Shown here piece after piece: positions 1,409 through 1,677 of a stretch of DNA of 64,000 bases. The translations under genes were made by a program, and so were the position numbers. Source of the stretch: Carcharhinus amblyrhynchos. Taxonomy: Eukaryota. Position 1 is the stretch's first letter. The number at the start of each line of letters is the position of its first letter. The notes below the pieces were generated by a model, which saw only the letters and a program-made list of their open reading frames with translations, did not search any database and had not been told where the DNA came from. Location: NCBI GenBank assembly GCA_965287045.1, contig OZ336900.1, positions 12,462,001-12,526,000 of the forward strand. The letters run 5' to 3'.

Positions 1409-1500
1409 GCCATGTTTGCGAGCTACGTCCCTGAAATCATAGAATTAATAGGAAACCGCAAGAAATATGGTGGTACCTATAGTGCGGTTAATGGAAGAAA
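1409..1500 (+). CDS. KCNMA1: BK channel alpha subunit exon 9 (S6 end and C-linker), 92 nt
   Basis: Long pyrimidine tract, cttag|GCC...AGAAA|gtaagt. Translates [30 protein letters not shown](K), matching Slo1. Phase 0 start, phase 2 end. Confidence 0.95.
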
Positions 1501-1549
1501 GTAAGTATCCCATGCGCCTCTGCTGCCTCTGATGCAGTAGAACACTCTC

Positions 1550-1582
1550 TGCATGCCATTTTCTTTTTCTGTTTCATGCATG
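1550..1582 (+). promoter_or_regulatory. Two RBFOX motifs (TGCATG) in the 85-nt exon 9/9alt intron
   Basis: TGCATG at 1550-1555 and 1577-1582; the second is 1 nt from the acceptor AG at 1584-1585. Confidence 0.6.
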
Positions 1583-1585
1583 TAG

Positions 1586-1677
1586 GCAATGTTTGCTCGA
1601 TACGTACCAGAAATTGCTGCTCTCATCCTTAATCGGAAGAAATACGGAGGGACTTTTAATGCGACACGAGGCAGAAA
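1586..1677 (+). CDS. KCNMA1: BK channel alternative exon 9alt, mutually exclusive with exon 9, 92 nt
   Basis: tgtag|GCA...AGAAA|gtaagt. Translates [30 protein letters not shown](K). Same length and phases as exon 9; matches known slo1 e9alt. Confidence 0.93.

Follow-up and report, generated by a model that had tools for sequence, protein, structure and literature searches.

The analysed window, a stretch of 64,000 nucleotides of the Carcharhinus amblyrhynchos genome, lies within KCNMA1, the gene of the BK (Slo1) channel, and carries near its start two alternative exons, here called 9 and 9alt, both on the plus strand. The identity of the gene was established by comparing exons 6–15 with shark and ray KCNMA1, from which they depart by 0–3 differences beyond one junction residue. 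Exon 8 is located 14.8 kb upstream of the exon pair, outside the window, while exons 10–15 are found at about 14.2, 19.2, 24.0, 26.1, 33.1 and 58.3 kb of the window. In this assembly the gene extends over approximately 730 kb of contig C31 (11.91–12.64 Mb), with its exons in order. Two tandem repeats were also observed: an array at 11396–12392, in the intron before exon 10, made of 28.5 copies of a 35-nt unit with 90% matches, and a degenerate one at 5413–5637, in which a 66-nt unit is present in 3.4 copies.

Exons 6–15 show almost no variation across sharks and rays, and do not separate the two groups. The N-terminal exons were compared among 19 species, and the best score was obtained with Mustelus (748), followed by Cetorhinus (717), with the eight batoids reaching at most 576; two diagnostic sites likewise read as shark. 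In exon 7 (L003 1297–1377), at a position in the S5 region, glycine is present in 21/21 chondrichthyan proteins compared, where the crocodile protein has alanine.

Canonical exon 9 (exon A) occupies positions 1409–1500 and encodes the end of S6, the ring formed by E321 and E324, and the linker between S6 and RCK1. Its polypyrimidine tract and AG acceptor can be read directly from the sequence at 1381–1408. An intron of 85 nt (1501–1585, GTAAGT...TAG), likewise read directly, separates it from exon 9alt (e9alt, exon B; 1586–1677), which is named “exon 11 at splice site 2” in the skate papers. The donor of exon 9alt, GTAAGT, opens the segment 1678–1701, which closes with a GCATG at 1697–1701, and the common downstream exon 10, where RCK1 starts, lies at 14163–14273. 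Both exons are 92 nt long, run from phase 0 to phase 2, and have AG directly before and GTAAGT directly after them, so that the original prediction of two homologous 92-nt exons with the same phases, 85 nt apart, holds in full. No third copy was found in the interval from exon 8 to exon 10.

The two exons share 59 of their 92 nucleotides; the best of 100,000 base shuffles gave 43, and none reached 59. The exons have the same codon at eight of the 30 positions compared; 14 codons carry silent differences, and the other eight encode a different residue. With numbering taken from human Slo1 313–342 aligned to exon 9, whose peptide is identical to the human protein in 27/30 residues, the replacements in 9alt are S317R, I323A, E324A, G327L, Y336F, S337N, V339T and N340R, and E321 is kept. 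The residues around the acidic ring are encoded at 1598–1600 (R317), 1610–1612 (E321), 1616–1618 (A323) and 1619–1621 (A324), and over the first 15 residues the net charge rises from −2 in exon 9 to 0 in 9alt. The I323A change had not been part of the original prediction. As to the order of descent, a divergent second gene of the Slo family is present on contig C34 near 12.99–13.09 Mb (L038 104–7103), with 50–65% identity per exon; it is likely KCNU1/Slo3. It has a single equivalent of exon 9, in which both glutamates are kept, and this suggests that exon 9 is the older form of the pair.

Inclusion of both exons, or of neither, leads to a stop inside exon 10, in agreement with the frameshift that had been predicted, and frameshift decay would remove such double- or null-inclusion transcripts. 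A motif scan of the 85-nt intron identified CTGAT (1529–1533) as the sole YTRAY branch-point-like motif, which puts the predicted branch-point adenosine at a distance of about 31 nt from the donor of exon 9. The steric limit used for mutually exclusive exons is a donor-to-branch distance below 50 nt (PMC5740500), and at about 31 nt the predicted branch point would be too close for exon 9 to be joined to 9alt. Since the only motif of this type falls below that limit, exclusivity is likely enforced sterically by the short donor–branch distance, together with frameshift decay. The pair thereby resembles known short-intron, frameshift-guarded mutually exclusive clusters: its exon length of 92 nt is not divisible by three, as in 60% of human clusters, and its predicted donor-to-branch distance is below 50 nt, as in 9% of clusters (PMC5740500). 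KCNMA1 is not mentioned in the main text of that paper, although its supplements may list the pair.

The same intron contains two copies of TGCATG, which we take to be an Rbfox element, at 1550–1555 and at 1577–1582, the latter immediately before the AG acceptor of exon 9alt. Two or more copies occur in 256 of the 63,915 85-nt windows of the whole stretch (0.4%), and 25 of the 100,000 shuffled versions of the intron contained as many; this enrichment was noticed post hoc. The two motifs suggest Rbfox control of the pair, and Rbfox acting there would likely set the choice of exon in each tissue. A docker-selector or hairpin mechanism found no support, as shuffled sequences fold as well as the segment 1490–1600 (z −0.16). 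A literature search that did not reach the key primary papers returned no paper on Rbfox or steric control of the pair, nor on the I323A link.

The use of exon 9alt could be followed in one of the four sequencing runs compared over 1480–2400. In this run (X5, organism C), which derives from a relative with three differing letters and is presumed to be RNA, a contig of 145 nt with a depth of 22.8 covers 1585–1678. One of its loose ends matches the last part of exon 8 in 25/27 nt and the other the beginning of exon 10 in 22/24 nt, which yields a join of exons 8, 9alt and 10. Of the predicted splice switch, the splicing of 9alt is thereby supported in a close relative. The evidence for the use of exon 9 comes from database isoforms rather than from read junctions. 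Among 121 proteins collected, 92 carry the region, of which 70 are of the exon 9 type, 19 of the 9alt type, two are fusions and one is truncated; the exon 9 peptide of this shark is present in 36 of these 92. Isoforms of both types were found in Amblyraja radiata, Leucoraja erinacea, Chiloscyllium plagiosum, C. punctatum, Scyliorhinus torazame and S. canicula. It had also been stated that exon 9alt is easily missed in annotation, and this is true in part, but named isoforms carry it in at least eight chondrichthyan species among the matches listed.

The contig and the conservation of the exon also decide against regarding 9alt as a defunct duplicate or a product of misassembly. The three runs with no match over 1480–2400 (X1, X3 and X11) might be counted in favour of a dead exon, but they are evidence in neither direction, and the splice sites are intact, synonymous codon differences outnumber replacements (14 versus 8), the peptide is identical to that of a frog, and the exon is spliced in a relative. 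All sampled words of the stretch are, moreover, contained in six large runs from three organisms. The splicing seen in the contig, together with the conservation of the exon, refutes this explanation, which we regard as practically impossible.

Strict exclusivity could in principle be broken by a shortened exon 9, since an internal GT at 1487 (1487–1492, after codon 26 of exon 9) permits an in-frame fusion with 9alt that would duplicate the end of S6. Such fusions appear in 13 of the 120 best of 5,700 database matches (from birds, teleosts and rodents) and in one further protein, and the required GT is present in this shark. However, none of the 13 is a named RefSeq “isoform X”, most being hypothetical proteins or submitter models, the donor (GCG/GTTAAT) is far from consensus, and the contig of the relative joins exon 8 directly to 9alt. 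No listed protein contains both full exons, either among the 92 region-bearing proteins or among the 120 best of 5,700 matches. The shortened exon 9–9alt fusion is likely a recurring artefact of gene finders, and it is highly improbable that the two exons are joined in this way in the animal.

The mammalian exon known as slo1 e9alt reportedly goes back to Soom et al. 2008. In KCNMA1 it occupies the same position, from the end of S6 to the RCK1 linker, and is mutually exclusive with exon 9 (PMC11758846). A published mouse e9alt primer, given in the same paper, translates to a motif that is confined to the two rodent 9alt blocks, and through this motif exon B is tied to the named mammalian exon. 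The first 16 residues of shark 9alt are identical to these rodent blocks; the linker half differs, with rodents having NRNKFGGTFNKHGGRK where the shark has a different stretch of 16 residues. Among the matches listed, those from teleosts, birds, reptiles and rodents all keep the first 15 residues, and the linker half varies. The gene and the exon had therefore been correctly named in the original prediction, as BK slo1 and its already described e9alt. A further paper retrieved (PMC10834251) concerns Kcnma1 exon 23b, not 9alt.

The proposed link to the skate was confirmed as well. Over the whole exon, the peptide of shark 9alt is identical to that of the little skate ampullary BK clone AJP74816.1, in which this exon is “exon 11 at splice site 2”. 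The clone was obtained from skate ampullae (bioRxiv 10.1101/274449), and the connection is already in print in that preprint, where the lower conductance of skate BK is attributed to charged residues in this exon in a summary of Bellono 2017. The two systems differ in that the exon described here is a shark exon.

Given this identity, exon 9alt might be regarded as an adaptation to electroreception, and its presence in a shark as a sign that low-conductance BK has a role in shark ampullae. Besides the match with the skate clone, this proposal can draw on the catshark Scyliorhinus retifer, whose BK record AWO14627.1, presumably cloned from ampullae, also carries 9alt. Skate ampullae, moreover, are reported to use the 9alt exon always (bioRxiv 10.1101/274449). 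However, the 30-residue 9alt peptide is identical in 30/30 positions in Xenopus laevis and Pelobates, and Xenopus is described as lacking electroreception (PMC5429088). The R/A motif was found in all 120 best of 5,700 matches to the skate 9alt region, which comprise 12 chondrichthyans, 106 named teleosts or tetrapods and two records without visible species; as these matches are ranked by likeness to 9alt, it is the breadth of this set that is informative and not the ratio of 120/120. Birds, reptiles, teleosts and rodents all show the motif, and e9alt is expressed in the mouse cochlea (PMC11758846). The conservation of 9alt is explicable without electroreception, and the proposal that it is an electroreceptor adaptation appears very unlikely. 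An electrosensory origin of the R/A residues is refuted by their spread to vertebrates that are not electroreceptive.

Because 9alt occurs in frogs, birds, reptiles, teleosts, rodents and a catshark, the R/A signature is, on the sequences compared, the mark of a jawed-vertebrate exon. The label “electroreceptor-type”, under which the signature had been presented, does not stand, as it is not restricted to electroreceptive animals. The original prediction had also attached weight to the retention of 9alt by a shark, on the ground that shark electroreceptors were reported to rely mainly on a Kv channel. That report was found in the literature, where the ampullary K+ channel is given as Kv in sharks and BK in rays (PMC11057056). 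The weight placed on retention is not justified: a shark would be expected to keep the exon whichever K+ channel dominates its ampullae, and the catshark record carries it too. The exon pair is real and was already described, and the explanation of the skate channel by exon choice had already been published (bioRxiv 10.1101/274449).

What the choice of exon does to the channel can be approached through the residues that it changes, which lie in a region covered by solved structures of human Slo1. A ring of eight charges, made up of E321 and E324, doubles outward current and conductance (PMC3105516), in agreement with the claim that this acidic ring underlies the large conductance of BK. Through E324A, exon 9alt loses four of the eight charges, and it gains R317; as a result, less K+ would be expected to accumulate at the inner mouth of the pore. 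With E324 lost and R317 gained, the 9alt channel is therefore likely of lower conductance. The third change in this segment, I323A, may shorten openings, as the same substitution in mouse Slo1 gave a mean open time of 0.20 ms versus 1.2 ms (PMC2292367, Table 2).

Another possibility is that the switch mainly tunes gating, that is, Ca2+ sensitivity, voltage range and open time, through the end of S6 and the C-linker, and that the drop in conductance is secondary. In the mouse, e9alt makes the channel less sensitive to Ca2+ and displaces the G–V curves; the effects given in the relevant passages concern voltage and Ca2+ sensitivity, and not unitary conductance (PMC11758846). Neutralization of the ring by E321A/E324A shifts V1/2 by about 100 mV (PMC5339509). 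The shortened openings of I323A point in the same direction, as do the linker tyrosine positions, which affect activation (PMC7371421) and of which Y336 becomes phenylalanine in 9alt. However, the charge changes sit in the first 15 residues, which are invariant across the matches listed, while it is the linker half that varies, and the conductance of skate BK was reportedly restored by reverting three charged residues (bioRxiv 10.1101/274449). We consider a primary role in gating a real possibility that falls somewhat short of even. It is compatible with the best explanation, from which it differs in which of the two effects is selected. Considering that mouse e9alt lowers Ca2+ sensitivity and that neutralization of E321 and E324 shifts V1/2, the effect on gating may be as important as that on conductance.

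Altogether, the evidence argues strongly, and with little room for doubt in our view, that the locus carries the known exon 9/9alt pair of shark KCNMA1, shared from sharks to rodents, with either exon 9 or exon 9alt spliced in, and 9alt likely giving a channel of lower conductance and altered gating. Under this explanation, skate electroreceptors would make use of a general exon of neurons and hair cells, and would not have evolved it themselves.

In itself, the finding adds one more shark to the animals in which this exon has been described. It also corrects a reading: as the R/A residues are a mark of e9alt in general, finding them in any genome is no indication of electroreceptor tuning. 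A broader proposal, which we advance tentatively and think more apt to fail than to hold, is that the “adaptation” of skate BK consists in the choice of an exon found throughout jawed vertebrates, that in mammalian brain and inner hair cells e9alt channels are likewise of low conductance (through E324A and S317R) and open only briefly (through I323A), and that the choice is switched by Rbfox through the sterically locked 85-nt intron. If this is true, results obtained with the skate channel would foretell how single e9alt channels behave in the neurons and hair cells of mammals, and the short intron would provide a compact minigene in which the control of the switch could be studied.
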